64,000 nucleotides of DNA from Acidimicrobiales bacterium (GTDB lineage Bacteria; Actinomycetota; Acidimicrobiia; Acidimicrobiales; GCA-2861595): NCBI GenBank assembly GCA_030448025.1, contig JAUJNQ010000001.1, positions 608,432-672,431 of the forward strand, in the 5' to 3' direction. Of this stretch, positions 294 through 64,000 are shown piece after piece. The translations under genes and the position numbers were made by a program. The notes below the pieces were generated by a model that did not search any database, was not told where the DNA came from, and worked only from the letters and a program-made list of their open reading frames with translations. Each line of letters opens with the position of its first letter. Positions within the stretch are counted from its first letter, which is position 1.

Positions 294-297
294 AGGC

Positions 298-5270: not shown

Positions 5271-5280
5271 TGTTCGACAG

Positions 5281-39292: not shown

Positions 39293-39460
39293 CTAGTCCT
39301 TGGTCACGAAGCCTTTGACCTTCTCGCCCACCTCGTCGATCTTCTCCTTGGTCTTGCCCTTGGTCTGGTCGACCTTGCCCTCCCGCTGAAGGTCCTCGTT
39401 GTCGGTGAGGTCCCCGGCGGCCTCCTTGGCCCTGCCCTTGAGCTCGTCCTTGTTTGCCAT
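39293..39460 (-). CDS. CsbD-family stress-response protein (55 aa)
   Basis: Own translation: MANKDELKGRAKEAAGDLTDNEDLQREGKVDQTKGKTKEKIDEVGEKVKGFVTKD. Classic CsbD pattern. Below the track length cut-off. Confidence 0.8.
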   Translation of the reverse strand: MANKDELKGRAKEAAGDLTDNEDLQREGKVDQTKGKTKEKIDEVGEKVKGFVTKD

Positions 39461-39495
39461 GGGAACAGGATAGGGGCCGGGCGAGCCAGCAGGGC

Positions 39496-40512
39496 TCAGC
39501 GGGCGAGGATCTCCTCGAAGAGGTCCAGGTGCTCGCCCACCATGCGCTTGGCCGAGAAGTAGTCCTCGGTCGAGGCCCGGCAGTCGTTGCGGTCGAGCTG
39601 GTCGACTCGGCTGATGGCCTCGGCCATGTCGTTCTCGTCGTGGCAGAGGAAGCCGGTCTTGCCGTCCTCCACGTCTCGGGGGCGGCGCCCTCGGAGAAGG
39701 CGAGAACTGGTGTCCCGCAGGCGAGGGCCTCGACCATCACCATGCCGAACGGCTCGTTCCAGCGGATGGGCACCAGGAGGCAGCGGGCATTGGCCAGAAG
39801 CTCCAGCTTGTCCTCGTGCGACACCTCGCCCATGTAGTGGATGTTGTCGTCGAGCTGCGGCTCGACCTCGGCGCGGTAGTACTCGTGCTCCCAGGGCTCA
39901 CGCATCTTGGCCGCCATCCGCAGCGGGTAGCCGGCCTTGTTGGCCGCGACGCTGGCCCGGTGCGCGCCCTTGTCGGCGGACATGCGGCCGAGGAACATGC
40001 AGTAGTCACCTTCACCGGTGCCCACAGGGAACATCTTGACGTCGACCCCGTGGTGGATGACCCGGGCGATGGGGATGTCCGGCACGGGCTCGTGCTGGGC
40101 GTGGGAGATGGCGATGAGCGGGACCCGGTGGGCGGTCCGCCGGTAGATGTCGGCCAGCTCGTCGTTCGAACGGGCCGTGGTTGGTGGTGACCACGTTGAG
40201 GTCGGGGAAGCGCTCCGAGTAGAGGGGACCGACCACGCTGTGATCGTGGACGATGTCGAAGTCCTGGACGGTGTCATAGGCGTGCATGAGGTGGCGGAGC
40301 TCGGGGACGGCCATGCCGATCCGGTACCCCTCGGCCTCCTCCAGGACGTGGGCCCTGGGCACGGGGCACGTGGAGTCGCCGGTCGTGTAGAGCAGGACCT
40401 CGTGACCCTCGTCCTGGAAGCCGGTGGCGAGCAGGTGCACGACGGATTCGATGCCTCCGTACAGAGGCGGGGGGATCGGTGTCCATGGAGGAGCGATGAG
40501 AGCGATACGCAT
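39496..40512 (-). pseudogene. GT4-family glycosyltransferase with two frame changes (net in-frame)
   Basis: N-terminus MRIALIAPPW..YGGIESVV (frame of ORF 40012-40512). Middle NDELADIYRR..EPFGMVMVEALACGTPVLAF (frame of ORF 36492-40529). C-terminus VEDGKTGFLCHDENDMAEAI..LFEEILAR* is back in the first frame. Junctions are near 40165 and at the G5 run 39678-39682. Confidence 0.75.
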
Positions 40513-40580
40513 GGGCTCCAGTGAAGCACTGCCGACTGCCGCGGTGGCGGTTTGGCCAGCCGTTAAGATGCTGGTTCCCC

Positions 40581-40654
40581 GGGCGTATGGCTCAGTTGGT
40601 TAGAGCGCAGCCTTCACACGGCTGAGGTCACAGGTTCGAGTCCTGTTACGCCCA
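40581..40654 (+). tRNA. tRNA-Val (anticodon CAC)
   Basis: Manual cloverleaf: acceptor GGGCGTA/TACGCCC, D arm GCTC..GAGC, anticodon stem CAGCC/GGCTG with loop TTCACAC, T arm ACAGG-TTCGAGT-CCTGT, discriminator A. CCA is not encoded. Confidence 0.9.
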
Positions 40655-40655
40655 C
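40617..40655 (+). repeat. attL: 39-bp direct repeat (3' part of tRNA-Val)
   Basis: cacggctgaggtcacaggttcgagtcctgttacgcccac. Identical copy at 63336-63374. Confidence 0.85.
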
Positions 40656-40863
40656 CGCAAAAGCCCAGGTCAGAGGGGGTGCGGGCTCCCAGCCCACTTC
40701 CTCAGGTGCCATTCCCCCGCGAGAAACCCGCGAGAACCCGCGGCACAGGGCGACATTCGACGCCATTAGCCGGCACGGGAAGGCACCAAACGGCACGGTC
40801 GGGAGTTGGACCGAGCGTTGCTACGACGTCCGTCGGATGGCGGGCTGGAGTCACGTGGTGACC

Positions 40864-42405
40864 TGTTTCTGAGTTCGCGACACAGATCCCGGTTGGATTA
40901 GCCAACATCGTCGGGTCCCTGGTCGGATTGGGGTGGAGGCTGCTGTCGATGGTAGGCGAGGCGTCGAAGACGGGCGGCTTCGAGATCGGCCTCTCGAGCT
41001 TTGCGGATGGCTGGGCCTCGTCCCTCGTGCTCGTCGTCGGGGGTGACGTAGCCAATGGCGTGGAGCCGCACCCCGTTGTAGCGGCTGCGGATGAGGGCGA
41101 GCTCAGCTCGGAGCACGGCCGGGTCGGCGATGGTGAGGAGGTGGGGCCACTCGGCCTTGAGGTGTCCGAACAGCGACTCGATCCAGGCTTGGTCCGTCGG
41201 GGTGCCGGGCCGGCCGAAGTGCTGGGCGATGGCCATGAGGGCCATGAGGGCCTCTCGAGTCGAGCCCGAAGTCATCTGGGGCCCGTTGTCGGAGATGGCC
41301 AACAGGATGGGGCGGTTGTCGTCATCGACGCTGGGATCGACGCGGCCGTCGGCTCGAGCCTCCACGAGGGGGAGCAGGCCTTCGACGGCCAGGGCGTTGC
41401 TGAAGACGATCTGGACCTGCGTCGAGGTCTCCTCGGCCGAGACGATGTCGGCGATCCACTTTCGAGAGACCAGGTCCTCGATCACCGTCACGGACACGCC
41501 CGCTCGACTGAAGTGCGACGTGTCGTAGATCCACAGCTGCTTGGGCCGGTAGTCGACCCACTCGGGGAAGGCCTGGCGCGCCGAACGCCCGGGGCGGGGC
41601 GGTGGTCGCAGATGAAGGCCCTGAGCAGCCAGAACGCGCCGCACTGAGACGGCGACACCCACACCCGATCGGTGTAGGAGCCTCGGTGGGCGAGCTTGCG
41701 ATGGGAGCGGTCGACCTCGCCCCAGTCGTGGTAGAGCGCCACGATCTCGGCCACCTCGTCATCGAGCAGGCCATGCATGGGGTGGCCACCGGGGTGCGGT
41801 CGCCGAGCTGGCCGGCGGCGCGGCGCTCGGCCCAACGCCACGCCCGTCGCTCGCCCACCTCCAGTTCCCGCCACGCCCGCCGGTGCGACCAGCCGGCCTC
41901 GACCGCTTTGTCGACAAGGTCCAGCAGTCCCGCCTTGGTGGCCTCATCGACACGACTCGGGACTCGGCCACTCAGCCCCAGGCTCCTTTTCCTCCACCAG
42001 CATCAGCTTCACCGCCATCTCCTTGAGCGCCTCGCCCAGACGAGCGGCATCGGCCCGGGCCGCCTCCAACTCGAAGTCTCTGCGCCGCCTTGGCGCCAGG
42101 CCGGGACCTGGCCAGCGCCTCCAAGGCGCCCTCCTTGGCCACCGTGCGGATGCGCATGATCGATCGTCGAGCGGTCCACCTGCCAGCGCTCGGCAGCCTC
42201 GGCCATGGTGGCCTCGTGCCGCACCAGCTGGAGGTAGATCTCGTACTTCTGCAATGGCGTCAGGAACCGCTTGGAGCGGCGTCCCGCATGGTCGGTTCCA
42301 CGGGTGGGATCGGGCATGGTCGGATGCTCCTCTACTGGTCGAGGAGACCCGCGGATGCTGCTTGATCAACCAGCCGATCTGTGACACGAAGTCAGGCGCA
42401 AACCA
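40864..42405 (-). mobile_element. IS3-family-type insertion sequence (orfA/orfB, rve DDE transposase), degraded or error-laden
   Basis: Imperfect terminal inverted repeats: left TGTTTCTGAGTTCGCGACACAGATC (from 40864) and right reverse-complement TGGTTTGCGCCTGACTTCGTGTCACAGATC (to 42405). Flanked by identical GTGGTGACC at 40855-40863 and 42406-42414. Confidence 0.7.
40898..42317 (-). pseudogene. IS transposase orfA-orfB, read through at least 4 non-programmed frame changes
   Basis: OrfA pieces: RFLTPLQKYEIYLQLVRHEATMAEAAERWQVDRSTI / MRIRTVAKEGALEAL / DFELEAARADAARLGEALKEMAVKLMLVEEK. OrfB pieces: GLLDLVDKAVEAGWSHRRAW.. / GLLDDEVAEIVALYHDWGEVDRSHRKLAHRGSY / intact rve core 40898-41662 (WIYDTSHF...SDNGPQMTS...ESLFGHLKAEW). 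Confidence 0.65.
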
Positions 42406-42643
42406 GTGGTGACCGTTCCAGGGTGCCGGCACCGCTCGCCACGAGGAAGTGGCACGGGCTGAAGGTCTCAACCCGCACCGTGCCCGAACAAACGGGCCCA
42501 TCGATCCGGGCGCGTGGAACCCTACGCGCCTGGTTCGCAGAGGGAAAGTGGCGATGCCACCGCGAGCGAAGCTCCGGGCCCCGCGCCCGACAGGGACCCG
42601 CGCTTCGACCGGCCGAACTCCCGCTGGATGGCGAAGCGGCTCC

Positions 42644-43768
42644 TCATAGGTTCGAGGACCCGGGCAGGGCCAGGACATCGGCGTCTGACACCGGAGGGCA
42701 CGAACCAAGATCCTCGAGGCGGGCCAGAACGGCCTCCTCGTGCCCAGGGAATAGGTGACCGTAGCGGTCGAGGACGACCGAGACCGAGGTGTGACCCGCC
42801 CACGTGGCGATCTGCTTTGGGCTGGCGCCGGCGGCGATCCAAAGTGAGACTGCCGTGTGTCGGAGGTCATGCGGGCGCAACGGCTCCAGTCCGGCAGCTC
42901 GAACTGCCGGCCGCCAGTGACGTGCCCGCCATGCGTTCGACCGGAGGGCACCGCCGTCGGCGCCCGGGAACACGAGCGCCTCAGGCGCAGCGTCGGCGAA
43001 CTCTGTCAGGTGGGCGGTCAACTCCTCCGCCACGAACCGAGGGATCGGCACCGTGCGCTGTCCGGCCTTCGTCTTCGGCACGCCGAGGGTGAGTTGACCC
43101 CGTACCTCGACGGCGATCTCGGCGACGCGTACCTGGCTGCGAAGGAGGTCGAGCCGGCCACGGCGGAGCCCTGCCAGTTCGCCGAGGCGCAGTCCGCAAT
43201 AGGCGTCGAAGAGCACGAGGGCTCGATAGCGAGGGTTGATGGCACCGGAGAGGGCGGCCACCTCAGGAGGCGTCAGGAAGCGCATCTCCTGGCGCTCGAC
43301 CCTGGGCAGGGGGATGTTCCGGCAAGGGGAGTGGCTGATGAGGTTGGCGTCCACCGCAGCCCGCAGGACCTTGGAGAGCGTCTGGTAGGCCTTCTGCACG
43401 GTCGCCGGCGCGAGCCCACGAGCGGTCAGCTCGGCCACCCAGGTTCGAACGTCAAGGTGGGTGATGCGCCCGATAGGCACCGGACCGAAGGCCGGGAGGA
43501 CGTGGGTACGGATATAGGACTCGTCCCGAGCGCGAGAGGTGGCTCGGAGGTTGACGGTGGTGCCCCACCAGGCATCGAGCCAGTCGGTGAGGAGGATGCG
43601 TCCGCCTGCCGGGTCGCACCAATCACCACGCTGCTGGTCGGCGCCCACCCGTTCGAGGAAGCGCACCGCGTCCCGCTTGGTGCCGAATCGCTGGGATCGC
43701 TCGCGCCGATCCACACCCCGGTAGCGGGCCTCATAGCGGCCGTTGGCAAGTTTTCGCACGTGCCCCAA
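42644..43768 (-). CDS. int: tyrosine-type site-specific integrase
   Basis: 374 aa. N-terminal SAM-like arm/core-binding region. Catalytic HDLRHTAVSLW and GHTSVSVVLDRYGH (R-H-R-Y signature region). Confidence 0.9.
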   Translation of the reverse strand: MGHVRKLANGRYEARYRGVDRRERSQRFGTKRDAVRFLERVGADQQRGDWCDPAGGRILLTDWLDAWWGTTVNLRATSRARDESYIRTHVLPAFGPVPIGRITHLDVRTWVAELTARGLAPATVQKAYQTLSKVLRAAVDANLISHSPCRNIPLPRVERQEMRFLTPPEVAALSGAINPRYRALVLFDAYCGLRLGELAGLRRGRLDLLRSQVRVAEIAVEVRGQLTLGVPKTKAGQRTVPIPRFVAEELTAHLTEFADAAPEALVFPGADGGALRSNAWRARHWRPAVRAAGLEPLRPHDLRHTAVSLWIAAGASPKQIATWAGHTSVSVVLDRYGHLFPGHEEAVLARLEDLGSCPPVSDADVLALPGSSNL

Positions 43769-43919
43769 CGGGCACCTCCCCGTGCTCGTAGCAAATGCGG
43801 GGCCGGACCGCTGGTGGGGTCAGCACCGGGACCGGCGAGAGTGGATTATCTCACCATCGCCGTTCGAGTGGTTGTTTCTCAGCGCTCAGCGCGAACCGTG
43901 CGGGGGGACCGCTTTCCAG

Positions 43920-44339
43920 CTAGAGCGAACCTCTCGGGACGACCCATTCCTGTCGTTGCCCGGTGATGTCGGCGATGCGCTCGAAGTCGGCGTCGTAGTG
44001 GAGAACGGTCAGGCCGGCGGATTCCGCCGCGGCTGCGATCAACAAGTCGGCGATCGGGAGGCGGTGCTGGCCGATTCCGGCCAACAGCCGCTGCACAGCG
44101 ATTGCCCTGGAGGTCACCTCCGGGGTGATCGGCACGTCATCGAGGGCTCGACGCTCGGCGAGAATGGCGTCGTAGGCAGCGAGGCTCCGGGCGCTGTAGA
44201 GGACCTCGAGGTCGATGATGGCGCAGGTCGCCACGAACCCTTCCTCGAGGAGTGGGCGGAGACGTGCCTCGACCGCCGCATGGGTCATCCGGGCGAGGGC
44301 GCTCTTGTCGACCAGGTGGGTCGCCCTCAGGAGCGCCAC
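43920..44339 (-). CDS. vapC: PIN-domain toxin (VapC-like)
   Basis: 139 aa. Acidic PIN positions in HLVDKSAL, IIDLEVL, IADLLIAAAA and HYDADFERI. Overlaps the upstream antitoxin gene by 13 nt. Confidence 0.85.
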   Translation of the reverse strand: MALLRATHLVDKSALARMTHAAVEARLRPLLEEGFVATCAIIDLEVLYSARSLAAYDAILAERRALDDVPITPEVTSRAIAVQRLLAGIGQHRLPIADLLIAAAAESAGLTVLHYDADFERIADITGQRQEWVVPRGSL

Positions 44340-44536
44340 GCGCCGGCCATCACCTCCGAGTCGTCGATCTCCAGGCCGTCCATTGCTACGAGGCGGTCAG
44401 CGTGGCGGCGGCGAAGCTCCGACCGGACTACCTCGCCGAGGGCCTGGTTCACGGTGTCTTTCATCGTCCGAGTACGCAGCACACCGCTGGCCTGCTCCAG
44501 GAGCGTGTCGTCGACGTCTATCAAGCGCTTGGTCAC
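44327..44536 (-). CDS. vapB: type II antitoxin (VapB-like)
   Basis: 69-aa ORF (GTG start) directly upstream of and overlapping vapC. N-terminus TKRLIDVDDTLLEQASGVL resembles the DUF2191/VapB type. Confidence 0.7.
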   Translation of the reverse strand: MTKRLIDVDDTLLEQASGVLRTRTMKDTVNQALGEVVRSELRRRHADRLVAMDGLEIDDSEVMAGAWRS

Positions 44537-45191
44537 ACCAGGAGTATATCCGTCGAAGGCTACCTAAGATATACGTCAGCGAGCGATATGACATGGCCCA
44601 GGTCGCTGGGCTGGTCACGCGTGGCCGAGACGGGGGCTGTCTGACTGCCCTGGCTAACCGGGTGGAGGCCGGTCGCGTCAGGCGGGCCGTTGCCGTGAGG
44701 TCGTCGAGGCCTTCTTTGCCTGACCTGATGAGACCGGAGGACCTGGGCATCATCGGACTCGACTCCTCGATGGAAGCGCGCTTCTATCACGGGGCCGGCA
44801 GCCGCGGGCGGGCGCCTGTGTCAGGAGGAAGGGGACACAAGTGCCGCTGCCATTTGCCCCAACGGCCTGTCGGAAGGGCTCCGACGTGTTGACTTCACCC
44901 CAAGTTGATTCGTAATTGTCAGGGAACGACTAGAGGGCATTCAGCGGTACGCAACGGCACAGGACGACACAGGTCGCAACGGTTTGGGAAGCACCGGGCT
45001 GGAAAACTCAAGTAGGACAAGCGCTTCTGTCGATCCACTCCAGCTTGCCGTATCCCATAGCCCCAGCCCGACCTTGGTACGTTCCCGGTCTCGGCCCCAC
45101 CCGACTCCGAACGCCGGGACCGGTCGCACGTCGCCAGGTTCAGCGGTCGTATTCCCGTCGGCCGCGCAAGAGCGGCATTGTGAAACTGGAC

Positions 45192-45746
45192 ATGCGCGCT
45201 CGGCTCGGCTCCCTGACGACGGCGATTGGCGACTGCGAAGTCGCCGTCGCCGCACCGAGGGAGGCGACCGCCGTGCTTGGGCTTCGAGACAGCCTGGCGC
45301 GCTACCTCTTGAACCGAGGGGTTCGGCAGTGGAAGCCAGGTGAGTTCCCAGCCGAATGGATTGAGGAAAAGATCGCTGCCGGCTCGGTGTATGTGGTCCA
45401 CCGCCACACTCAGCTGATCGGCTCGGTGACCATCACGCGTGAGGACACCCTCACTTGGAGCGAGCGTGACGATCTCGCCGGCTATATCCACATGCTCATG
45501 ATTGACCGAGCCTTCGCTGGCTACGGCGTCGGGCGGTCCCTCCTTGGCTGGTCGGAGGCGACGATCGAGGCCGACGGCCGTGGCCTCGCCCGTCTGGACT
45601 GCGTGCGGAGCAACGATCGGCTCCGCCGGTACTACGAGGAGTTCGGTTACCGGCTGGTGGGCTACCGAGACTTCCCGGAGATCCCCTGGGTGCTCGAGAC
45701 AGCGCTGTACGAGAAGCGCCTTGGGGGAACTGATCACGCCCTCTAA
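45192..45746 (+). CDS. GNAT-family N-acetyltransferase
   Basis: Met50 of track ORF 45045-45746. IHMLMIDRAFAGYGVGRSLL (acetyl-CoA motif A) and RRYYEEFGYRLVG. Confidence 0.75.
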   Translation: MRARLGSLTTAIGDCEVAVAAPREATAVLGLRDSLARYLLNRGVRQWKPGEFPAEWIEEKIAAGSVYVVHRHTQLIGSVTITREDTLTWSERDDLAGYIHMLMIDRAFAGYGVGRSLLGWSEATIEADGRGLARLDCVRSNDRLRRYYEEFGYRLVGYRDFPEIPWVLETALYEKRLGGTDHAL

Positions 45747-46896
45747 CGCTGATCGGGGGATCCGTCGCGCGGAGGCCAGGCCCCCGTGGACGGCGCGGTT
45801 ACCGCGCGCAGAACCCGTGCCGAAGTCGGGCGGTCGTCGCCAGTCCCGAGTGCCGAGTGGTTCCGAGTGTTCCGACCCGGGTGCCGATACAACATCAGCG
45901 CCAGAACGTCGATCTGCTCGCTGGCCGGCGTTGGGGGTTGTCGTCCCGACTCGCTGTCAGGCATCGCACTCTCATTGTCCCGCTCCAGACAGACCATCCG
46001 ACGATTTCCCGTGCGCTCGTCTTTACCGGCGACGTCCACTTCCCTCGCCGACGGACTCCCCGGATCGTCCCCTGAGCAGCCTGCGGCCGCAACCAAAGGC
46101 CAGTTGGCTGCACCCGGCTCTCTTGATGGGGGCAGCCGCAGGCTGCGCTGATCGCAGCCCATCGCGGTGATCGTCGGCTGGCGGGCCGGCAGAGCCGGCC
46201 CCATGCGTTCACGTCGGTGATGAACAATGGTCGGCGACAACAACAAGTGCTGGTCGCTCCGGAGACGAACCCCGCCTGAGGAGCACACTTCGATGCGTCG
46301 GCGTCGAGGAGATTTGTCATGGGGGCGTTCGCGAAGATCTCCACCCCGGCGTCGGCTACGTCCGCCACGAGAAACTCGCTTCTGGCCATCGACGACGTCA
46401 AATGCGGCCTCGAAGCTGTGCGAGCACTTCGCCCACCGAGCCTGGCCCCGGTGCTGAACGCTTTCGCCCGCCTCCTCAACCCCATCATGGCCACAGAGAG
46501 TCGGACTCCTCCGGTGACAAGGGCTGGCTCCAGTGGTATCGCTGACCGACGTCGCGCCTCAGCTCGACAGGCACGTTTCAACTCGCCCGAGGTTTCTTCA
46601 CTCCTCGGCTACGACTCGCAAACCTAAGCCGTGAGCCTCGGAAAGGACGCACCGACGACGATTCTTGCATTGGAGTGGGCATTGGATGGGTGTCGGGTCC
46701 TGGAGTCGCCGGGCTAAAGCCAGGGTCGTCGCCGACCGACAAGGAAGTGATGAGCGCGGCGAGGGGCCGGATGAGCTCGCTGTACCAGCACGGGCCGATC
46801 GGTGACCTGCGCCCGGCGTGGCGGGGGGTCGACCCCGACGGCGCCTCTGCCTGGTCGAAGGATGCAGCGTGACGGCACTCGCAGGAGAGGCAAGCG

Positions 46897-48927
<2,031 letters not shown>

Positions 48928-49173
48928 GAGAGCTAGCCGGTCCAGACGACCAGGACACGCCCAAAGTCGAACCAGCCTCCTCGGCGGGCAGCGCGGGTAG
49001 AGCGCCTCCCCTCGAGTCTCGTGCTGGCTGTCGAGGTCAGTCGCCGAGGCGACCTCGCCGATCTGGGGGCGGTGCGGGGGCCTGGACCCCACTATGACGC
49101 TGGCCCGCTGGGGCCCGAAGGGATCCTTGTCACACTGTCATGGTTGAACGAACGGCGACTGTGCCGAGCGACG

Positions 49174-50148
49174 TTAGTTGGCGCCTCCGCCGACCGGCAG
49201 GGCCGCATGGACCCCAACGCGCCGTTGGTCTCCGGTGCCGTCGCACACCTCGAAGCAAGCCTTGCCCCGCTCCTTCGCCCGGTACATGGCGGCGTCGGCC
49301 TGACGGACCAGGGCCGATGGGGTGTCCCTCCGCTCACCGGCTAGGGCGATCCCCACGCTGGCGGTGATGTACACGTCACCGCCGGGCAGCACCACCGCGG
49401 AGTCGCCGATGGTCCTGAGGACCCGATCGCCGATGGCCAAGGCGGAGTGGTCGTCACTCATGTCAAGGCACAGGATGGTGAACTCGTCGCCGCCGAAACG
49501 GGCCAGGGTGTCGCAGGGGCGGAGGACGCCCCGAAGTCGCGACGCAATCTCCACGAGGAGCTGGTCGCCGGCCTCGTGACCGAGCTTGTCGTTGATCGCC
49601 TTGAACCCATCGAGGTCGAAGAAGAGGACGGCGATCCTTCCCGGACGCCGCTCGACGTAAGCGAGGCCCATCTCCAGGCGGTCGAGGAACAGTGTGCGGT
49701 TGGGAAGCCCGGTGAGGTCGTCGTGGAGAGCCCGGTGAGCCAGTCTCTCGGCCTCCCGCTTGAGACGGTAAAGGTCGACGAAGACCGAAACCTTCGAGCG
49801 TAGGACAGCCGGGATGAAGGGCTTGTGCATGTAGTCCACGGCCCCGGTCTCGTAGCCCTGGAACATGCGCTCGGGATCCTCGCCGAAAGCAGTTAGGAAG
49901 ATGATCGGTACGTGCCTCGTCTTCTCCCGATGCTTGACGTACTTGGCCGTCTCGAACCCGCTGATCCCTCCTGGCATCTCCACGTCGAGCAGGATGAGGG
50001 CAAAGTCGTCCTCGAGGAGCCGCTTCAGGGCTTCCTCCCCCGAATGGGCTCGGACCAGGTTCAGCTCCAACGGCTCGAGGATGGCTTCCAGCGTCACCAG
50101 GTTCTCGACCCGGTCGTCCACCATGAGGATGTTCGCCTTCTCGGTCAT
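49174..50148 (-). CDS. response regulator-diguanylate cyclase (REC-GGDEF)
   Basis: Met172 of track ORF 49174-50661 (MTEKANILMVDD). Its ATG overlaps the cheR TGA (TGATG). Contains LTGLPNR, RFGGDEFTIL and the ADAAMYRAKERG motifs. Confidence 0.9.
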   Translation of the reverse strand: MTEKANILMVDDRVENLVTLEAILEPLELNLVRAHSGEEALKRLLEDDFALILLDVEMPGGISGFETAKYVKHREKTRHVPIIFLTAFGEDPERMFQGYETGAVDYMHKPFIPAVLRSKVSVFVDLYRLKREAERLAHRALHDDLTGLPNRTLFLDRLEMGLAYVERRPGRIAVLFFDLDGFKAINDKLGHEAGDQLLVEIASRLRGVLRPCDTLARFGGDEFTILCLDMSDDHSALAIGDRVLRTIGDSAVVLPGGDVYITASVGIALAGERRDTPSALVRQADAAMYRAKERGKACFEVCDGTGDQRRVGVHAALPVGGGAN

Positions 50149-51008
50149 CACGCCGTCCGCCGGTAGAGCTTCTGCCTTGCATCGAGGTCCTGGTAGCGCG
50201 CTTCGTGGGGTGTGAAACGCAGGGACTCCTTCTGTCCGAGCGCCAGGACCCCGAATGAGTTGAGGCTGTTGTAGAACAACTCGTGGACCCGCTCCTGGAG
50301 GGTTCTCCCGAAGTAGATCAGCACGTTGCGGCACAAGATCGCGTTGAACTCGTTGAAAGGGCCATCCGACACCAGGTTGTGCTGAGCGAAGAGTATGTTC
50401 TCCGACAGCGAGGGGCTGATGCGCAGCTTGCCGCCAGCTTCGGCGAAATAGCTGGAGAGCTCCCGGGTTCCTCCGGCACGAAGGTAATTGTCGGTGTAGG
50501 CGGGCATGTCCTTGAGCGCCAATGCGCCGGTCCTGGCCCTCTCGAGCACCACCTCGTTGATATCGGTGGCGTAGATCCTCGTCCGCTCGTAGAGGCCCTC
50601 CTCTTCGAGGACGATCGCCACGGAGTAGGCCTCCTCGCCTGTGGAGCAGCCGGCGATCCAAATGCGGATGACCGGATAGGTACGGAGGAGAGGGACCACC
50701 ATGGCCCGAAAGGCGGCGTAGAAGCCGGGATCCCGGAACATGGCTGTGACGTTGACAGACAGGACTCGGAGGAGCCGCTCCATGCAGGCCGGGTCGTGGA
50801 GGACCTTCTCCTGCAGGCCAGAGAGGCTCTCGAGCTTCTCTGCTTGGACGCGCTTGCGTAGCTGGCGCTTCAGGGAGCTGGGCGCGTACTGGCGGAAATC
50901 GAAGCCGTAGTGGCCATAGATGCCCTCCAGCAGCAGCTGCATCTCGACGTCCTCGAGGGCAGCGTCCGTCCCGCCCGGAACCTCTGCGAACATCCCCTCT
51001 CCGGGCAT
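50148..51008 (-). CDS. cheR: CheR-type protein-glutamate O-methyltransferase
   Basis: 286 aa. N-terminal helical domain (LLLEGIYGHYGFDFRQY), TAMFRDP, SAM-binding RIWIAGCSTGEEAYS, and CRNVLIYF. Confidence 0.9.
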   Translation of the reverse strand: MPGEGMFAEVPGGTDAALEDVEMQLLLEGIYGHYGFDFRQYAPSSLKRQLRKRVQAEKLESLSGLQEKVLHDPACMERLLRVLSVNVTAMFRDPGFYAAFRAMVVPLLRTYPVIRIWIAGCSTGEEAYSVAIVLEEEGLYERTRIYATDINEVVLERARTGALALKDMPAYTDNYLRAGGTRELSSYFAEAGGKLRISPSLSENILFAQHNLVSDGPFNEFNAILCRNVLIYFGRTLQERVHELFYNSLNSFGVLALGQKESLRFTPHEARYQDLDARQKLYRRTA

Positions 51009-51019
51009 CGGCTCCGGCG

Positions 51020-56116
<5,097 letters not shown>

Positions 56117-56880
56117 ACGATCTCCTTTTCTTGCTCAGTGGGTCACCGATCGAGCCGGGGACGCGCCATAGCCGCTTCCGGCCCCGGCCCGAGGCCGGGG
56201 TGAACTCAACGACTTCCCTGCCTTGACGTGTCGACCAATCGGGACTCAGCCTTTAGCGATTCACGATCGGAACCCGGGCGGCTCAGATGAGCTCTCGAGC
56301 AAGACCTCGCCGAGGCGGCTCGCTCGCACCAGCACGTAGGAGTGACCATCGATAGGGTCCAGCTACGACGTTCTGTGCTCGCCAGCCCTTGTGAGATGCT
56401 CCCGAATCAGACACTTCCGGGGTAGGCAACCGTCGTCCGTCGCGCAGGAAGTCGGCGCCACCAAGGGAGCCGACTTGCTGGTTTCACCCTGCTCGTCACG
56501 GTGGACGTCCTCGGCGTCGGCGTGGCGGCCGAGGGCTGGACACCCCCGAGCAGCCGACCTTCCTGCGCCTTCACGCTGCCACCAGGCCGTCTGGCCACCT
56601 AGCCAGCCCAACCGGTGTCGTCGGCGTCGAGCACCGCGGCGAGGCTGCGCCAGTTCTCGCAATTGGTGCTTGGATGCGACACAAGCGTCGATTCTCGGCG
56701 TTCCGCTCGCTATTGGGGCTGTGGACCGCTATGTGTGTTCGCTGTGACCACTATATGTGTTCGCACTACTTTCGGCTCAAGGTCAGGTCATCTGATGCCG
56801 ATGTCTTGCCAAGGTGCTTCGGCACTGGGTTGTCGGCCGCCGGTCGAGCAACAGCTTGACCATGGGAGGTCACAAGAAGC

Positions 56881-59640
56881 GTGCTTCGGGAGTCGCGGGG
56901 CATCACAGAGGTGCGTCCGCGCCAGAACGGCGACAGCGACATAGGCGACACGACATCACAACCAGCATTCGCTGGCGACACCGCCGCATTCCTCACCCAG
57001 GCGGCCCGGACCCTGACTTCCTCACTGGACTTTGAGGAGACGCTCAAGCTTGTGGCCCGCCTTGCCGTTCCGGTCATCGCCGACTGGTGCGTCGTCGACA
57101 TCGTCGACCAAGAGCTCAGCCCCAAATTGCGCCGACTGACTATCACCCATGCCGACCCCGAGAAGGAGCGGTGGGGCCACGAGATCGCTCGTCGCTATCC
57201 CCCCCTTCCCGATCAATCCGTCGGTCCACAGCGGGTGGTGCAGACGGGTCGCCCCGAGCTGGTCGAGGACATTCCTGACTCGATGCTGATGTCGGTGGCC
57301 AGGGACGACGAGCACCTTGCCCTGCTCCGTCAGATCGGCTTCTCCTCATACATGTGCGTGCCGCTGCGGGCCCGAGGGAAAATCCTTGGAGCCATCACCT
57401 GCGTGGCGGCGGACTCGGGCCGTCGCTTCGGAGATGCTGATCTCGAGCTGCTCGAAGCCCTTGCCCGCAGTGCCGCCAGTGCTGTCGACACCGCCTTGCT
57501 GTTCCACGGCGTCGAGGAGGCGAACAGGACGAGCCAGGAAGCACTGGGCCTGCTCGACAGCTTGTTCGTGAGCGCACCGGTTGGCCTCGGGTTCTGGGAC
57601 TCAGACCTGCGCTGTGTCCGGATCAACGACTGTCTTGCGAGCATCAGCGGGGTGCCGGTCGACTCCTGCCTGGGCCAAACGCCCGTTGATATCGTCGGAC
57701 CCCTCGGGGAAGAGATCGAGGCCCTCTTCCGGCGCGTCCTCCTCAGCCGAGAGCCCGTCACCGGCTACGAGCTGTCGGGGCAAACGGCGGCTGCCCCGGA
57801 CGAGGAGCGACATTGGGTCGTCCACTACTACCCGGTCGTCTCCGCGCCCGACGCAGTCCTCGGTGTGGGAGCGGTGGTGGTAGACGTCACTGAGCGCAAG
57901 CGAGCCGAGGAGGCTCTGCGTCAGAGCGAGGAACTTTTCCGCAGCCTGGTGGAGAGCGCCGCCGACTACGCCATCTACATGCTCGACCCCGGCGGAAAGG
58001 TGATGAGCTGGAATCGGGGCGCCGAAAAGGCCAAGGGCTACGGCCGCGACGAGATCTTGGGTCGCCACTTCTCCACTTTCTTCACCAAGGAGGACGTCGA
58101 GCAAGGCACGCCTGAACGTCACCTCAAGCTGGCTCTCGAGGGTGGGAGCTGGGAGCATCAAGGATGGCGGGTGCGCAAGGACGGTTCCCGGTTCTGGGCC
58201 AACACGGTGTTGACCGCCCTGCGGGATGCGTCCGGGGAGGTGCGGGGCTTCTCCAAGGTCTCCCGGGACATGACCGAGGCCAAGGCCATGGAGGAGCAGC
58301 TCAAGCGCCAGGCCCTCACCGACCCTCTCACCAACCTGGCCAACCGGGCCCTGTTTCGAGACCGGGTCGAGCACGCCTTTGCCCGCAGGGAGCGCCGGGA
58401 CGAGCGCCTGGCGGTGCTGTTCTTGGACCTGGACGGGTTCAAGAAGATCAACGACACCCTGGGCCACGAGGCCGGGGACCACTTGCTGGTAGAGGTGGCC
58501 GCCCGCCTGCAGGACTGCGTGCGGCCCTCGGACACGGCGGCGCGCATGGGAGGAGACGAGTTCGCCATCCTCCTCGACGACCTCAAGGGCCCAAGCGACG
58601 CCGCTCGGGTGGCCGAGCGCATCTTGGGGGCGCTGTCGGCTCCTTATGACCTGGCCGAGGGCCGAGTAAGGGTCCAGGCCAGCATCGGGCTGGTGGCCAA
58701 CCCCGCAGGCCAGAGCGGCGCGGAGGCGGTGCGCAACGCGGATCTGGCCATGTACTCGGCAAAGCAGGCTGGCAAGGGTCGCTACGAGCTCTTCGAGCCC
58801 GGCATGCACACCGCGGCGGTGAAGCGTCTCAAGCTGGAGGCGGACTTACGACAGGCGGTCGAGGACGAGGGCTTCGAGCTGCACTACCAGCCAATCGTCG
58901 AGCTCGAGACCAGGCGGATCGCAGGCATAGAGGCCCTGTTGCGCTGGCACCACCCCACAGACGGGTTGCTGACTCCGAGCGCATTCATGGAGGTAGCCGA
59001 GGAAACCGGGCTCATCCTCGCCATCGGTTCGTGGGTGCTCCGCCAAGCCTGCGCCCAGGGGCGCTGGCTGCAGTCGCAGTACCCCATGGAGCCGCCGCTG
59101 TCCATGAGCGTCAACCTCTCCCCCAAGCAGTTCCTCCACCCCGGCTTGGTGGCCGATGTGGCCCGGGCTCTGGACCACTCGGGCCTACCGGCCCAGAACC
59201 TCATCCTTGAGGTGACTGAGGCCGCCCTTCTGGAGGGCGGTGAGGAGAGTGTCACCACGCTCGGGAGGCTGAAGGAGATGGGAGTCCGGATTGCCCTGGA
59301 CGACTTCGGCACCGGCTACTCGTCGCTCACCCATCTTCAACGCTTTCCGGTCGACATACTCAGCCTCGACAAGGATTTCGTCGAAGGGCTCAGGCGGGGG
59401 TCGTCGGAGTGGGCCTTGGCCGGGGCCATCGTCGGGCTCTGCGAAACCCTCGAGTTGGACACCCTTGCCGAAGGCATCGAACGAAGCGACCAGCTGGCGA
59501 AGCTCGAGGAGCTGGGATGCGACGAGGGCCAGGGCTACTACCTGGGTCGGCCCCTGGACGTCGACGAGACGCTCCAACTGGTGAAGTCCTCGGAGTCGCC
59601 TCCCGGCGCCAGCCCCGCGAAAACGTCGAAGGGCTCCTGA
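56881..59640 (+). CDS. GAF-PAS-PAS-GGDEF-EAL c-di-GMP signalling protein
   Basis: 919 aa. GAF (LVARLAVPVIADWCVVD..). Two PAS domains (SRDMTEAKA linker). MGGDEFAIL. EAL region with IEALLRW, DDFGTGYSSL and EGIE. Confidence 0.9.
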   Translation: MLRESRGITEVRPRQNGDSDIGDTTSQPAFAGDTAAFLTQAARTLTSSLDFEETLKLVARLAVPVIADWCVVDIVDQELSPKLRRLTITHADPEKERWGHEIARRYPPLPDQSVGPQRVVQTGRPELVEDIPDSMLMSVARDDEHLALLRQIGFSSYMCVPLRARGKILGAITCVAADSGRRFGDADLELLEALARSAASAVDTALLFHGVEEANRTSQEALGLLDSLFVSAPVGLGFWDSDLRCVRINDCLASISGVPVDSCLGQTPVDIVGPLGEEIEALFRRVLLSREPVTGYELSGQTAAAPDEERHWVVHYYPVVSAPDAVLGVGAVVVDVTERKRAEEALRQSEELFRSLVESAADYAIYMLDPGGKVMSWNRGAEKAKGYGRDEILGRHFSTFFTKEDVEQGTPERHLKLALEGGSWEHQGWRVRKDGSRFWANTVLTALRDASGEVRGFSKVSRDMTEAKAMEEQLKRQALTDPLTNLANRALFRDRVEHAFARRERRDERLAVLFLDLDGFKKINDTLGHEAGDHLLVEVAARLQDCVRPSDTAARMGGDEFAILLDDLKGPSDAARVAERILGALSAPYDLAEGRVRVQASIGLVANPAGQSGAEAVRNADLAMYSAKQAGKGRYELFEPGMHTAAVKRLKLEADLRQAVEDEGFELHYQPIVELETRRIAGIEALLRWHHPTDGLLTPSAFMEVAEETGLILAIGSWVLRQACAQGRWLQSQYPMEPPLSMSVNLSPKQFLHPGLVADVARALDHSGLPAQNLILEVTEAALLEGGEESVTTLGRLKEMGVRIALDDFGTGYSSLTHLQRFPVDILSLDKDFVEGLRRGSSEWALAGAIVGLCETLELDTLAEGIERSDQLAKLEELGCDEGQGYYLGRPLDVDETLQLVKSSESPPGASPAKTSKGS

Positions 59641-59660
59641 GGAGGTTGGCCCGAATCTCG

Positions 59661-62600
59661 ATGAGCGGCGTACAAACACGCGGTGCTCTCCAGGAGACGC
59701 TCGGACACTTCGACGCCAGCTTCGGCCCCGCCCCGGTGGGAATGGCGGCGATCAGCGCCGAGGGTCCCTCGCTGGGGCGCTTCCTACGGGTGAACCCAGC
59801 TCTGTGCGCCATCACCGGGCGCTCGAGCGACCAACTCCTCGTCACCACCTCCAGGCCATCACCCATCCCGACGACCTGGGGGCCGGGCTGGCTTACCTGG
59901 ACGAGGCATTGCACGGCGAGCGGCGCTCCTTCCAGACCGAGAAGCGCTACGTCCACGCTGACGGCCACGTCGTGTGGGTGGCGCTCAGCACCTGGGCCGT
60001 GCCCGACTCCACTGGGCTCCCACTGTGCTTCCTCACCCAGGTGCACGACATCACGGCGGCAAAGCTGGCCGAGGACGCCCTGAGGGATCGGGAGCGCCAG
60101 CTTTCTGAAGCCCAGCAGCTGGCTCGCCTGGGGAGCTGGCAGTGGGACATCGCCTCCAACCGGGTCCAGTGGTCCGACCAGTTGTACCTGATGTTCGGGC
60201 TGGATCCCGCCCACTTCGAGGCCACCTACCAGGCCTACCTGGCCCAGGTCCACGTCGAGGACCGCCAAGTCGTCCACGAGACCATCACCCGGGCCCTGAA
60301 GACCCACGAGCTCTTCTCGCTCGAGCACCGCTCGGTTGAATTCGCCGATGGCGCCAAGTGGATCCGCTCCCGCGGCCTGGTGGAGGTGGACGAGAAGGGT
60401 ACGCCGGTCGCGATGCATGGCACCGCCCAGGATTTCACCGAAGCCAAGCGGGCCGAGGAGGAGAACCAGAAGAGGCAACAGCTGTTGAACGCAGTCCTCG
60501 AACACCTGGAGGAGGTCATCGTCGCCTGTGATGCCGAGGGGATCTTGACCTTGTTCAACCGCGCCGCACGGGACTTTCACGGGCTTCCCCCCCAAGGCCT
60601 CCCGCCTGGGCGCTGGGCCGAGCACTACGACCTCTACGGCGCCGACGGAAGACGCCCATGGAACCCGAGGAGATTCCCCTCTTCCGGGCTCTCATGGGAC
60701 ATCGCGTGCGCAATGCGGAAATGGTGATTGCCCCTAGGAACGCCCCGAGCCGCACGCTGGTGGCCAACGGACAACCCATCTCGGACGCTGGCGGTCGCAG
60801 ACTGGGCGCTGTTGTGGCCCTGCGCGACGTCACCGCTTCACTGGAGGCCAAGGCCCGCCTGGACCACCAGAGCCTCCATGACGCCTTGACCGGCCGGCCC
60901 AATCGAGCCCTGTTCGTGGATCGCGTGGCCCAGGCCCTGGAGCGGGGCAAACGGGGCAGCCGCTGCACCGCGGTGCTGTTCTTGGACTTGGACCGCCTGC
61001 GAGCCGTCAACGACGCATTCGGCTACGGCGCCGGCAGCCAGGTTCTGATGGCTCTGTCCGCCAAGCTCGACCAGGTCCTTCGCCCCGATGGCACCGTGGC
61101 CCGTGTCGGAGGCGATGAGTTCGCCATCCTCTGTGAGGACGTCGCCGATGAGCGGATCGTAATGGACATCGCGGAGCGAACCCTGGCGGCGATCCAGGAG
61201 CCGATGGAGATCGGCGATGGGCAGATCCGTCAGGTCGTGTCACCGCCACGTTGGGGGTGGCCGCGGCTGTGCCGACAGCAGCGATGCGGAGGGTCTGCTC
61301 GCCGACGCCGAGCTCGCCCTGCGACGGGCGAAGGAACAAGGCGGGGCCGGCTGTGAGCTCTTCTCGCCAGAGATGCGAGCCGACACCGTGCAGCGCATCG
61401 CGAATGAAGTGGCCCTGCGACGGGCCCTCGAGGAACGCCAGTTCGGCCTCGTCTACCCAGCCCATCATGGCGCTGAACACCAACAAGATCGTGGGGGCCG
61501 AAGCGCTGATGCGCTGGGAGCATCCCGAGCGGGGCGTGGTGGCGCCCCTCGACTTCATACCGCTGGCCGAGGAGACCGGCCTCATCGTGCCCATCGGCGC
61601 ATGGGTTCTCGAGGTAGCCGCCCGCCAGGCCGCCACGTGGGCTCGTCGTTCCCCGCACGGCTACCCCTGAGGGTGTCGGTGAACGTGTCGGCCGCGCAGT
61701 TCCGAGCCGGGCTGGTGGACACAGTGAGGAGCGTGCTGGACCGGACCGGGATCGATCCGGGGATGCTCTGCCTGGAGGTCACCGAGAGCATCATCATGGA
61801 CGACGTCGAGGAACCCATCGCAACACTGGTTGCCCTGAAGTCCCTCGGCGTGGCCATCTCGATCGACGATTTCGGCACCGGCTACTCCTCGCTCGCTTAC
61901 CTGAAGCGCTTTCCACTCGACGAGATGAAGGTGGACCGCAGCTTTGTCGACGGGCTTGGTCGAGATCCCGAGGACACCGCCATCGTGGCCGCGGTGACGG
62001 CCATGGCCCACGTCTTGGGGCTCTCCGTGGTGGCCGAAGGCGTGGAGACGGCGGAGCAACTGGATAACGTCCGCCTGCTGGGCTGCGAGCTCGCTCAGGG
62101 CTACCACCTGGCCCGACCTCAGGATGCCGCGGCCTTTGCCAAACTCTTGCGAGCCGAGGACGAAGCCGCTTCCAACCCTTCGTTAGATGTTGAGGCGGGC
62201 CGCAGCGGTTCGCGTTGCTCCACCAAAGACACTGTGGTCATCGCTGATGACTCTCCCGATGTCCTGCTGTTGGCCGACGTGAGCCTGGCGTCGGCAGGAT
62301 TCGAGGTGCACACGGCGAGCGGCGGCGAAGAGGCCATCTCGCTTGTCCGAGCGGTCCGGCCCTCATGTGTGGTCCTTGACGTGACGATGCCCGGTCTGAG
62401 CGGCGTGGAGGTCTGTCGAGAGCTCCGCCGATCCCTCCACCAGCGGGTGCACCATCGTGATGCTCACGGCCAACGAACTGGCAGCCAAAAAGGTCGGGGC
62501 CTTCTCGGCCGGTGCCGACGACTACATGCTCAAGCCGTTCTCGCCGCGCGACCTGGTCAGCCGGGTGAGGGCCGCCATGCGCCGCACGTCAGATGGGTCG

Positions 62601-62696
62601 CACTTGGCGGCCCCCGCTGATCAGAGTGCGGACAGCACACGGGCGCCCACCGCCGTTTCCGTTCCTTCATCCGCCAGTGCGAACGCGGCGCGTTGA
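59661..62696 (+). pseudogene. PAS-PAS-PAS-GGDEF-EAL-REC protein with at least 7 frame changes
   Basis: Colinear segments across three frames: MSGVQTRG..PAS; QAITHPDDL..WQWDIASNRVQWSDQLY..; MEPEEIPLFRAL..VGGDEFAIL; [17 protein letters not shown]; [11 protein letters not shown]..; [24 protein letters not shown]..; [21 protein letters not shown] / [16 protein letters not shown]. Junctions are near 59840, 60650, 61240, 61270, 61455, 61660 and 62428. Confidence 0.8.
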
Positions 62697-63335
62697 TGGA
62701 AATGCTGCGCCCTCTTGCCTGTGGCTTGCGCCGGGGCAGATCTCCAAGGAACCATGATCTTCGAGTCTCAGGAGAGACCGCGGAGCGCTCCGGGGCTGCT
62801 TACTTCTTCCTCCAGCTCCTCGTCTCTGTCAGCGTCGCCCTGTTCGCCGTCGGGTTCCGTCCTCCCTCCCTGGTAGGGGGCCTGTGGCGACGGCCCCAGG
62901 AGGAGACCATGCGTCGAGGCCTGCAGGCGCACCCGGTAACCGGCGATATGCAGTGAGTCGACCGGCCGGTAACCGCGGCGCCGACGGCGGTTCCCGTGCG
63001 AGGTGGGGTGCGAAGCAGCGAACGCCGCGACGGAACGCTCGCGGTTGGGGTGGAGCACGCCGAGCAGATCCATGTCGCGGCATAGGGGCCTCGGGGGAGA
63101 AGGCGTAGGGATGCTGGGGCGCCGAGTTGATGCCGCGATTCCCGCTCGACAGTCCGGTGACCGGCTACGGCTGCCACAAGCCTGGCCCCGCGCATGTTCA
63201 CTCAAGGCAGCGCGCCCGCGGATGCCCTGCGGACTGGCTGATATTCAGGGGCACCAGCGGACACCAGCGGTCACAAGAAAGTGGCCCTGACCAGCACGTT
63301 CCTTGAATCCGTCCTGGTCAGCGAACTGGCCGGTT

Positions 63336-63374
63336 CACGGCTGAGGTCACAGGTTCGAGTCCTGTTACGCCCAC
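63336..63374 (+). repeat. attR: second copy of the 39-bp tRNA-Val 3' segment
   Basis: Identical to 40617-40655 and in the same orientation. The preceding sequence does not form the tRNA 5' half. Confidence 0.85.
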
Positions 63375-63572
63375 AGGGAGAAGTTCGGGTCAGACGCCTT
63401 CGGTTCGCCACCAGGCCCTTCCAGGAGCCACCAGTTCGGCAGCCCACCAGGCCGCCAGAGGTCGCCGTTGTCAAGGGTGAATGCCTGTCACCGCCGCGTC
63501 GTGGGCAGGGAAGTGATCGTGGCCATGCAACAGGCTCGGCATCGACACAGGAGTTTGGTGGTGAGGGGCTCT

Positions 63573-64000
63573 CTATGGCGAGAAGCGGGCCCCATCGGCT
63601 GGCCATTCGGGAGGAGAGTCAGCTCCGGCCTGGCCGCCCCAAAGCAGGAGGACGTCCCCTGTCCACGCCACGCTGACGGTGGTGCGAGCCCGAAGCGGCG
63701 ATGGCGGCAGGAGCCCTCCCAACGGTTACCGGCGGGTGAGTAGGCGGCGCCATCGTTCATCCTTTCCTTGTCCCCGCCACCCCAGACCAGGAACTCCTTG
63801 CCCGTCCATGCCCAGGCATGCCCGCCGCGCGGGCCGATCGGTGCCGGCTCAATGGTCCGCCAGGTTCCAGCTACCGGGTCATAGGCGGCGCCATCGCCGA
63901 GGTGCCCGTCCCGTCCCCCGCCCCCCAGACAAGCAGCTCCCGTCCCGTCCAAGCGGTGGCCGCCCCGACCCGCCCAGCCACCGGAGCCGGTTGAATCGGT
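63573..64000 (-). pseudogene. Kelch-repeat (beta-propeller) protein, 5' end outside the window, two frame changes
   Basis: Repeated AWTG(R/K)E(L/F)LVWGG..DGAAY(D/S)P..(T/R)W units. Segments are ..AATAWTGRELLVWG / GDGAAYDPVAGTWRTIEPAP..HAWAWTGKEFLVWGG..DGAAYSPAGNRWE / LPPSPLRARTTVSVAWTGDVLLLWGGQ..ARFSP*. Junctions are near 63925 (G-run) and 63715. Confidence 0.6.

Follow-up and report, generated by a model that had tools for sequence, protein, structure and literature searches.

A probable tRNA-Val(CAC)-targeting genomic island with c-di-GMP signalling genes in an Acidimicrobiales bacterium

Genomic islands that rely on integrases of the lambda/P4 type are well established as carrying, within their element attachment site (attP), a copy of the 3' segment of the tRNA gene that they enter. 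Actinomycete integrative and conjugative elements (AICEs) and actinophages, which have a size range similar to that of the element described here, also integrate into tRNA genes of their actinobacterial hosts. Described tRNA-targeting islands include NBU1 (tRNA-Leu) and the Mesorhizobium symbiosis island (tRNA-Phe) (PMC5812530), and tRNA-linked integration hotspots are found across Actinobacteria (PMC9903846). Here we analyse a 64,000-nucleotide stretch of an Acidimicrobiales genome (contig JAUJNQ010000001.1 of assembly GCA_030448025.1, positions 608,432 to 672,431; hereafter the window), in which a tRNA-Val(CAC) gene is followed by a tyrosine integrase gene, a set of signalling genes and a second copy of the tRNA 3' end. 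The locus is a classical tRNA-targeting genomic island, and we consider it very probable that an integrative element used its own tyrosine integrase to enter the 3' part of this tRNA gene.

The likeness to the tRNA-targeting islands listed above extends to the integrase gene beside the tRNA, a repeat that runs from the anticodon loop to the 3' end, the regenerated tRNA, a shifted base composition, and an accessory cargo with a toxin-antitoxin module. What differs is the Acidimicrobiales host, the tRNA-Val target, an integrase 30-36% identical to annotated ones and the lack of a recognisable directionality factor. The best annotated matches of the integrase belong to AICEs (pMLP1 and pMR2 of Micromonospora) and actinophages, whereas the window has no Rep, FtsK/TraB-type transfer protein, Xis, Nudix, regulator or phage structural genes. 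As in integrative mobilisable elements (IMEs), a small integrated element combines an integrase with cargo, and one relative (L042) has a TrwC relaxase-helicase and an HTH_17 gene beside int; the element in the window, in contrast, has no relaxase.

Cargo acting on cyclic di-GMP (c-di-GMP) is already precedented on integrative elements: SXT/R391 integrative and conjugative elements (ICEs) encode diguanylate cyclases (Bordeleau et al. 2010, cited in PMC4542580 and PMC5812530). As they appear in these citing texts, they resemble our locus in being integrated mobile elements with adaptive cargo that alters host c-di-GMP signalling, and differ from it in being self-transmissible Vibrio ICEs at the prfC site with single diguanylate cyclase genes, whereas the island is non-conjugative and carries a six-gene two-component/c-di-GMP network. 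The current understanding of genomic islands is unchanged by the locus. It adds a case of horizontal transfer with sharply defined borders in Acidimicrobiales, soil bacteria that are represented chiefly by metagenome-assembled genomes (MAGs). The att sequences are exact, and a candidate motif for integrase binding and a set of related elements that differ in cargo come with them.

The tRNA repeat, the integrase and base composition

ARAGORN calls tRNA-Val(CAC) as the sole tRNA in the window. The 39 nt from its third anticodon base to one base beyond the discriminator (CACGGCTGAGGTCACAGGTTCGAGTCCTGTTACGCCCAC) occur in two exact copies, on the same strand, with 0 mismatches and at a spacing of 22,719 bp (coordinates are collected in Table 1). 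An earlier note, made from the letters of the sequence alone, had reported this recurrence and the want of a tRNA 5' half at the second copy, and both observations withstand computational comparison. The 39-mer found no chance match in dinucleotide-preserving shuffles (0/100), even with 3 mismatches permitted. At the second copy ARAGORN is silent, and the 36 nt before position 63336 have no ungapped match to the tRNA 5' part. The tRNA 3' end is duplicated over 39/39 nt, with an intact tRNA at one end only.

The gene adjoining the att site at the tRNA end encodes a tyrosine recombinase with arm-binding, SAM-like and catalytic domains (Pfam), in which R194, K232, H300, R303, H326 and Y336 all fall at invariant columns of the family alignment. 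This full R-K-H-R-H-Y set predicts a catalytically intact enzyme. Its scores lie far under the Xer cut-offs, and the 30-36% identity mentioned above is the most that it reaches with annotated phage and plasmid integrases, the best matches being pMLP1 intM (34%), an integrase of the Micromonospora rosaria plasmid NC_006910 (34%) and those of Gordonia and Glutamicibacter phages (33-35%).

The earlier note had placed only a nested insertion sequence (IS) between integrase and tRNA, and this arrangement proved correct: the IS is precisely bounded, with imperfect terminal inverted repeats and a 9-bp target duplication (GTGGTGACC at 40855-40863 and 42406-42414). It sits ~200 nt from the att core, where it splits the P' arm, and is 72% identical at the nucleotide level to an IS on a Mycolicibacterium plasmid. 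NCBIfam profiles class it as IS3-like but under their cut-offs (78.7 vs 160 for IS3 and 38 vs 224 for IS481), and its open reading frame (ORF) is split. A Logan contig from read set SRR24765286 (L002), 100% identical to 42406-45072, joins 42406 straight to 40863; it carries an IS-free allele with the target site uninterrupted. Once the IS is removed, the gap from int to the tRNA is 437 nt, in the same convergent geometry as in relatives.

Both k-mer and G+C composition differ between the inside and the outside of the repeats, so that the island is atypical with respect to the flanking chromosome. The G+C fraction is ~0.66 between the repeats against ~0.705 in the 40 kb to the left. The tetranucleotide distance to the outside profile is 19-28 for every 5-kb interval wholly inside and 11.6 +/- 1.8 (maximum 15.3) outside, in a comparison whose reference was built from those same outside intervals and to whose inside signal the repetitive polyHAMP gene contributes.

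The integrase family at tRNA-Val and its arm motif

A metagenome scan gave 26 loci with relatives of the integrase, and we assessed the 19 that combined 57-79% identity with sequence downstream of int. In 12 of the 19, a tRNA-Val gene (CAC, TAC or GAC) lies on the opposite strand 96-156 nt beyond the int stop codon. Two further loci have tRNA-Val at 1.8-2.4 kb, one of these gaps holding an IS-type HTH gene as in the window, and three have a Val-tRNA-like 3' fragment, which brings the Val-linked loci to 14/19, or 17/19 with the fragments counted. More distant integrase relatives are found elsewhere, at tRNA-Ala (47% identity) and at tRNA-Phe/Asp (40%). The lineage to which the integrase belongs is tied to tRNA-Val.

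The 39-mer itself has matches in 38 genomes, all of them Acidimicrobiales or Actinomycetota MAGs. Six other Acidimicrobiales genomes hold it at 2-3 copies; at least five of the six have an extra copy that is an orphan 3' half without a tRNA call, the remaining extra copies falling at locus edges where they are not classifiable, and several extra copies adjoin integrase homologues. Contig JALYMX010000440.1 (21.5 kb; L016, L026) combines a full tRNA with the same glycosyltransferase (GT)-csbD flank, and an orphan copy that has a convergent integrase homologue on each side, an arrangement that we interpret as a tandem array at tRNA-Val. In another genome (L036, 2410-3911), a 1.4-kb mini-insert lies between the tRNA and a 39-mer copy with one mismatch.

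For five relatives we listed the genes island-side of int, with provisional island boundaries. L042 carries HTH_17, a TrwC relaxase-helicase and an RHS/PA14 protein; L058, HTH_17, a GAF histidine kinase (HK), GGDEF, CapC/Mur-ligase genes and a sigma factor; L048, two nucleotide cyclase-AAA-TPR proteins and one cNMP-binding protein; L047, monooxygenases, hydrolases and a dehydrogenase; and L057, Toprim, an HTH-cupin protein and a NiFe hydrogenase. The cargo of the window is shared by none of the related integrase loci. Since cargo differs among members, the family is modular, and some of its members are mobilisable. In L042 and L058 the HTH_17 gene, the usual excisionase type, adjoins int at the place that the vapBC toxin-antitoxin pair takes in the window. 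Judged by these arrangements, tRNA-Val is an integration hotspot in Acidimicrobiales, used by one family with a shared int/att module and interchangeable cargo.

Second-messenger genes lie island-side of int in 3/6 family members examined (c-di-GMP genes in the window, and those of L048 and L058). A bolder reading is that, at the tRNA-Val of soil Acidimicrobiales, one integrase family repeatedly delivers ready-made second-messenger signalling modules, the island being a self-contained, horizontally moved behavioural module in which a CheR-modulated polyHAMP HK, methylation-tuned without a methyl-accepting chemotaxis protein (MCP) or CheA, acts on a diguanylate cyclase. We regard this as an unlikely proposal.

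A shared motif accompanies the integrase. In the 48 nt tabulated downstream of each tRNA 3'-end copy, a sequence of the form AAAG..CAGGTCAGRGG, with GGTCAG beginning 13-15 nt beyond CCCA, accompanies every site that is followed by a convergent integrase of the family; sites lacking such an integrase, the empty site of L031 described below among them, do not have it. The window as a whole is not enriched in CNGGTCAG (16 copies vs 20.8 expected); four of these are no more than 50 nt from an att core (40666, 63287 inverted, 63314 and 63386), against an estimated expectation of ~0.06. The inverted pair upstream of attR has the potential to form a hairpin (z = -2.2). Sites of the CNGGTCAG type are probably integrase-binding sites of attP, present on both of its arms. 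Each arm also holds a short tandem repeat, CCCGCGAGAA twice at 40716-40736 in the P' arm and CACCAGCGG twice at 63252-63270 in the P arm, which may be further protein-binding sites or chance matches.

Mechanistically, an element of ~21.2 kb before the arrival of the IS, equipped with a lambda-type tyrosine integrase, would have entered the 3' part of tRNA-Val. Since its attP would have included the tRNA's final 39 nt, recombination would have regenerated the tRNA at attL and left an orphan 39-nt copy at attR. The predicted attP junction is CCTGGTCAGCGAACTGGCCGGTT + CACGGCTGAGGTCACAGGTTCGAGTCCTGTTACGCCCAC + CGCAAAAGCCCAGGTCAGAGGGGG, and the predicted attB junction is GCGCAGCCTTCA + CACGGCTGAGGTCACAGGTTCGAGTCCTGTTACGCCCAC + AGGGAGAAGTTCGGGTCAGACGCC. 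This member of the family would have brought a vapBC stabilisation module, a GNAT gene and a signalling cluster typical of Actinomycetota, with c-di-GMP synthesis and breakdown as its outputs. A site-specific integration tool for Acidimicrobiales, which are hard to manipulate, could be developed from the integrase and its 39-nt site.

The interpretation of the repeats as attL and attR of a site-specific integration, already put forward in the earlier note, is reinforced by the linkage of the family to tRNA-Val, the orphan 39-mers, the arm motif and the composition shift. It is, in our judgement, extremely improbable that no integration occurred and that the second 39-mer matches by chance, is left over from a duplicated tRNA gene or reflects an assembly chimera at a repeated k-mer. 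A chimera would fit an attR junction that comes from one assembly, and the many indels by which two assemblies differ raise a concern over assembly quality or strain mixing. Yet the chance expectation is 0, the geometry of int, tRNA-Val and arm motif holds across the family, orphan copies recur among the six other genomes, the composition shift coincides with the repeats, and the locus lies within a 252-kb NCBI contig.

Cargo and mobility functions

Because the genome has ~70% G+C, raw ORF lists are rich in artefacts; genes were set by combining GC3-guided ORFs with Pfam and with the calls in a public record that is nearly identical. On the left flank, a 1345-aa ORF (36492-40529) was rejected as a high-GC artefact that overlies three real genes (GT, csbD and addB).

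Table 1. Features of the tRNA-Val(CAC) island and its immediate surroundings in the window
Feature	Coordinates	Strand	Basis or remark
tRNA-Val(CAC), integration target	40581-40656	+	ARAGORN; Rfam tRNA 73.4 bits
attL identity block, 39 nt, third anticodon base to tRNA 3' end	40617-40655	+	exact repeat
CAGGTCAG motif, 10 nt past attL core, P' arm	40666-40673	+	tracks integrase presence
Nested IS, 1,542 bp, in P' arm between attL and int	40864-42405	-	inverted repeats, IS-free allele, rve/rve_3
IS transposase, split: rve part	40898-41758	-	Pfam rve/rve_3
IS transposase, split: HTH-like part	42009-42365	-	
Tyrosine integrase, 374 aa, transcribed towards tRNA	42644-43768	-	Pfam Phage_integrase, Phage_int_SAM_3, Phage_int_M
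vapC (PIN)	43920-44339	-	Pfam PIN; NCBIfam VapC under curated cut-off
vapB	44327-44563	-	Pfam VapB_antitoxin
GNAT acetyltransferase	45192-45746	+	Pfam
Stretch without recognisable gene, 1.15 kb	45747-46896	.	no Pfam matches
Hybrid histidine kinase, REC-HisKA-HATPase-REC-REC	46897-48927	+	Pfam; NCBIfam BarA/TorS-like, under cut-off
Three-gene operon	49174-56116	-	Pfam
Operon: REC-GGDEF	49174-50148	-	Pfam; GGDEF motif and RxxD I-site intact
Operon: CheR	50148-51008	-	Pfam
Operon: polyHAMP(x7)-GAF-HK-REC(x3)	51020-56116	-	Pfam
GAF-PAS-PAS-GGDEF-EAL protein, 919 aa	56881-59640	+	Pfam; GGDEF, EALLR and DDFGTG motifs present
PAS-GGDEF-EAL-REC pseudogene	59585-62696	+	partial domains in successive frames
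Right island end (P arm), non-coding, ~380 nt	62957-63335	.	no Pfam matches
Inverted CTGGTCAG pair, P arm	63287-63294; 63314-63321	-; +	motif positions
attR identity block, orphan tRNA 3' half	63336-63374	+	exact repeat, no tRNA call
CGGGTCAG, 11 nt past attR, same offset as P'-arm motif	63386-63393	+	14/20 match to attL-side motif
Kelch-repeat gene fragment, right flank	63488-64000	-	Pfam Kelch under curated cut-offs; runs off window

The cargo had been described in the earlier note as VapBC, a GNAT and six two-component/c-di-GMP genes over about 16 kb, and as unusual. Its content is confirmed by Pfam: the type II toxin-antitoxin pair vapBC (43920-44563) occupies the place of the HTH_17 gene of two relatives, and the six signalling genes cover 46897-62696, or 15.8 kb. 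The GGDEF/EAL signature motifs are intact in both complete c-di-GMP proteins. The last of the six genes, PAS-GGDEF-EAL-REC, is split over at least four frames (59585-60727, 60658-61356, 61217-62620 and 62457-62696) and is therefore a pseudogene. The cargo is less unusual than supposed there, since elements bearing diguanylate cyclases have been published and other family members carry signalling genes. The locus shows that whole signalling circuits, beyond resistance or metabolic genes, ride integrase-borne islands in Acidimicrobiales.

The polyHAMP/CheR/REC-GGDEF operon recurs in L067 (GCA_030155705.1) with 82.6% nucleotide identity over 6.8 kb and different neighbours, and a more distant version with CheB added is found in L069. 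The cargo is therefore typical of Actinomycetota, not exotic. At the three loci (window 49174-56116; L067 1311-8321; L069 3060-13805) a soluble polyHAMP-GAF-HK always precedes CheR (with CheB in L069) and a REC-output protein, and no MCP, CheA or CheW lies nearby. We scored 7,997 CheR homologues, all at E <= 1e-40, and the best 120 of the 7,997 are 62-100% identical. The polyHAMP-HK/CheR/REC-output module seems widespread in Actinomycetota; its composition suggests a methylation-tuned histidine kinase, and we found no paper describing it.

The polyHAMP gene shows strong DNA self-similarity at 53900-55600, where ~7 HAMP/HAMP_2 units give staggered BLAST matches. The encoded protein has 1698 aa here, 1721 aa in L067 and 2310 aa in L069, and the differing HAMP copy number suggests expansion and contraction of the array. 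A scan of 39-64 kb with Rfam for riboswitches returned the tRNA only. PADLOC found no defence system, its matches being receiver-domain cross-matches only.

As for mobility, Pfam detects no capsid, terminase, relaxase, type IV secretion system (T4SS), Rep, FtsK or excisionase domain on the island ORFs, small ORFs included, in line with the earlier note, which recognised no capsid, terminase, relaxase or T4SS genes. A tblastn search of the window with proteins from relatives (HTH_17, TrwC, Toprim and their neighbours) gave nothing. The island thus has neither the T4SS, or FtsK-like TraB, with relaxase or Rep of an ICE or AICE, nor a relaxase of its own (by Pfam or tblastn) as an IME would, nor the capsid, terminase, portal and primase-type genes of a prophage or phage satellite, and no related viral contig sequence was found. 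Since it lacks genes that would control its excision, replicate it or transfer it, has an IS in its attL arm and counts a pseudogene among its cargo, the locus is most likely a non-autonomous island, excising rarely or never now and probably decaying.

We give a low probability to the opposite view, that of a fully active mobilisable element whose integrase works alone or with an unrecognised or host directionality factor, while a helper conjugative element or phage provides transfer. Such activity would agree with the intact integrase and with repeats that are identical at 39/39 positions although attR is under no tRNA selection, two features that also speak against decay; the IS-free allele implies that the IS is recent, and the TrwC relaxase in one family member that transferable forms exist. 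On the other hand, no HTH_17/Xis, relaxase or recognisable oriT was found in the island, its P' arm is split by the IS, its terminal cargo gene is a pseudogene, no circular junction occurs in the available contigs, and the viral contigs lack the 39-mer.

The site in relatives, the age of the island and its decay

The left flank is a GT-csbD-addB-addA cluster, of which GT, csbD and addB are syntenic in most genomes, and its nucleotide identity between the window and relatives is 83-90%. The nearest relatives by this measure, L031 and L040, reach 89-90%. Sequence of L031 starting 10 nt past the tRNA corresponds to sequence of L040 starting 1,618 nt past it (91.5% over 3.6 kb), the common flank being rpsB-tsf-pyrH. 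The 1.6-kb insert thereby delimited in L040 begins with homologues of window positions 40727-40780 and 42437-42513, without the IS, and goes on with vapC, cut off after residue 70, and an entire vapB, 88% identical to the window at the nucleotide level, and then an OsmC-like gene; the insert contains no integrase and no attR. From the L040 remnant and the L031 junction it follows that a sister element was once at this site in L040 and was cut down by deletions, and that L031, relative to this remnant, presents the unoccupied site. The empty site had been predicted in the earlier note as tRNA-Val followed directly by the Kelch-repeat gene. This arrangement was found in none of the 38 genomes, and the only demonstrable empty site, that of L031, has the rpsB-tsf-pyrH flank; rpsB is not in the window, and its adjacency is known from one clade only.

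The right-hand border leads to a further alternative to the insertion of a single element. The motif copy after attR sits outside the island, where chromosomal DNA would not be expected to have it; this copy is the chief hint that the DNA on the Kelch side may belong to an older element of the same family. The Kelch gene shows an apparent frame change near 63722, which together with the GGTCAG motif hints at a second, older island remnant in tandem. The best homologues of the Kelch fragment have only 39-50% identity, with no near-identical protein on record.

A composite or tandem origin could take two forms: successive elements whose internal att sites were lost, or a small int-vapBC-GNAT element that later gained the signalling cluster, with the Kelch side perhaps an older remnant. 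We hold this origin to be possible, if clearly the less probable course. The tandem array of the JALYMX contig, with its full tRNA, orphan copy and two integrases, provides a model within the family. The DNA after attR has an element-type GGTCAG at the right offset (14/20), the right flank of the window differs from the rpsB cluster of the L031 empty site, L040 shares the left end and vapBC only, and the HAMP-HK/CheR/GGDEF operon exists as a separate module, with other neighbours, in L067. Between backbone and cargo, moreover, the DNA at 45.7-46.9 kb is gene-less and indel-rich, with three 1-bp indels between assemblies within 45747-46896 (at 45770, 46199 and 46228). What weighs more with us is that between the repeats no att or tRNA remnant exceeds 14 nt and none turns up at <=9 substitutions, that composition is fairly uniform over the interval, and that it has one integrase only; the motif after attR is a single short match, and rpsB adjacency comes from the one clade.

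Integration of a single element at tRNA-Val remains the reading that we prefer, and several observations fit it less well. At its 5' edge, the attR identity block falls 6-10 nt short of the other orphan copies of the family, which also counts as a sign of decay; a gapped alignment at attR would imply the loss of one CA from the anticodon-loop CACAC, an extra match that is not significant. The attR junction is known from this assembly alone, and an empty site with the window's own right flank is lacking among the 38 genomes. Nothing points to excision: attP and attB junctions are absent from the contigs examined, and a scan of viral contigs gave no matches to the 39-mer. Two close relatives, L015 and L038, have DNA of the island's left end after the tRNA, their contigs or stored blocks ending soon after, and residence at the site may therefore predate speciation. 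Likewise, the 82.6% identity of the operon in L067 is near the 83-90% of the left flank, so that cargo and flank share one lineage and the island is possibly old.

A near-identical locus gives a view of recent change. Contig JAUJPE010000004.1 of GCA_030447265.1 (252 kb; L001/L070), which encodes the integrase protein, is ~99.7% identical to the window, with clustered SNPs and indels, and as an independent contig it repeats the left junction and the cargo to ~61 kb. The GAF-PAS-PAS-GGDEF-EAL gene, intact in the window, is frameshifted there by a 1-bp difference at 59181; the PAS-GGDEF-EAL-REC gene is broken in both assemblies, the NCBI one having further indels. These differences point to strain heterogeneity or uneven assembly quality. 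The island appears to be caught in the middle of its decay: one arm is interrupted by an IS, an excisionase is lacking, the gene at the far end has become a pseudogene, and sister genomes retain remnants.

Over 32631-61000, indels relative to L001/L070 and L002 are concentrated in four places: the GT gene, the IS, the spacer at 45.7-46.3 kb and the pseudogene at the right end. The clusters within the island count as a sign of decay. The family-4 GT gene beside the tRNA (39493-40529, minus strand) is frameshifted with respect to the intact orthologues of L015, L031, L038 and L040, which have 338 aa as called and 365-372 aa as stop-to-stop ORFs. This frameshift and four 1-bp indels between assemblies make it probably a pseudogene.

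In L037, ~5.3 kb (148-5465) separate tRNA-Val from a weak match to the L031-type right flank, the left flank being 86% identical at the nucleotide level. The genes in between are for an MFS transporter and a rhodanese/metallo-beta-lactamase protein; integrase, arm motif and second 39-mer are all absent.

Finally, at 45067/45068, in the spacer between vapB and the GNAT gene, the NCBI record holds a relatively AT-rich segment of 188 bp that the window lacks, with no other copy in the window or in the fetched loci. The segment is bounded by a CCGAC direct repeat, and the L002 contig ends exactly there. The difference looks like a deletion between short repeats, which may have removed the promoter of the GNAT gene.

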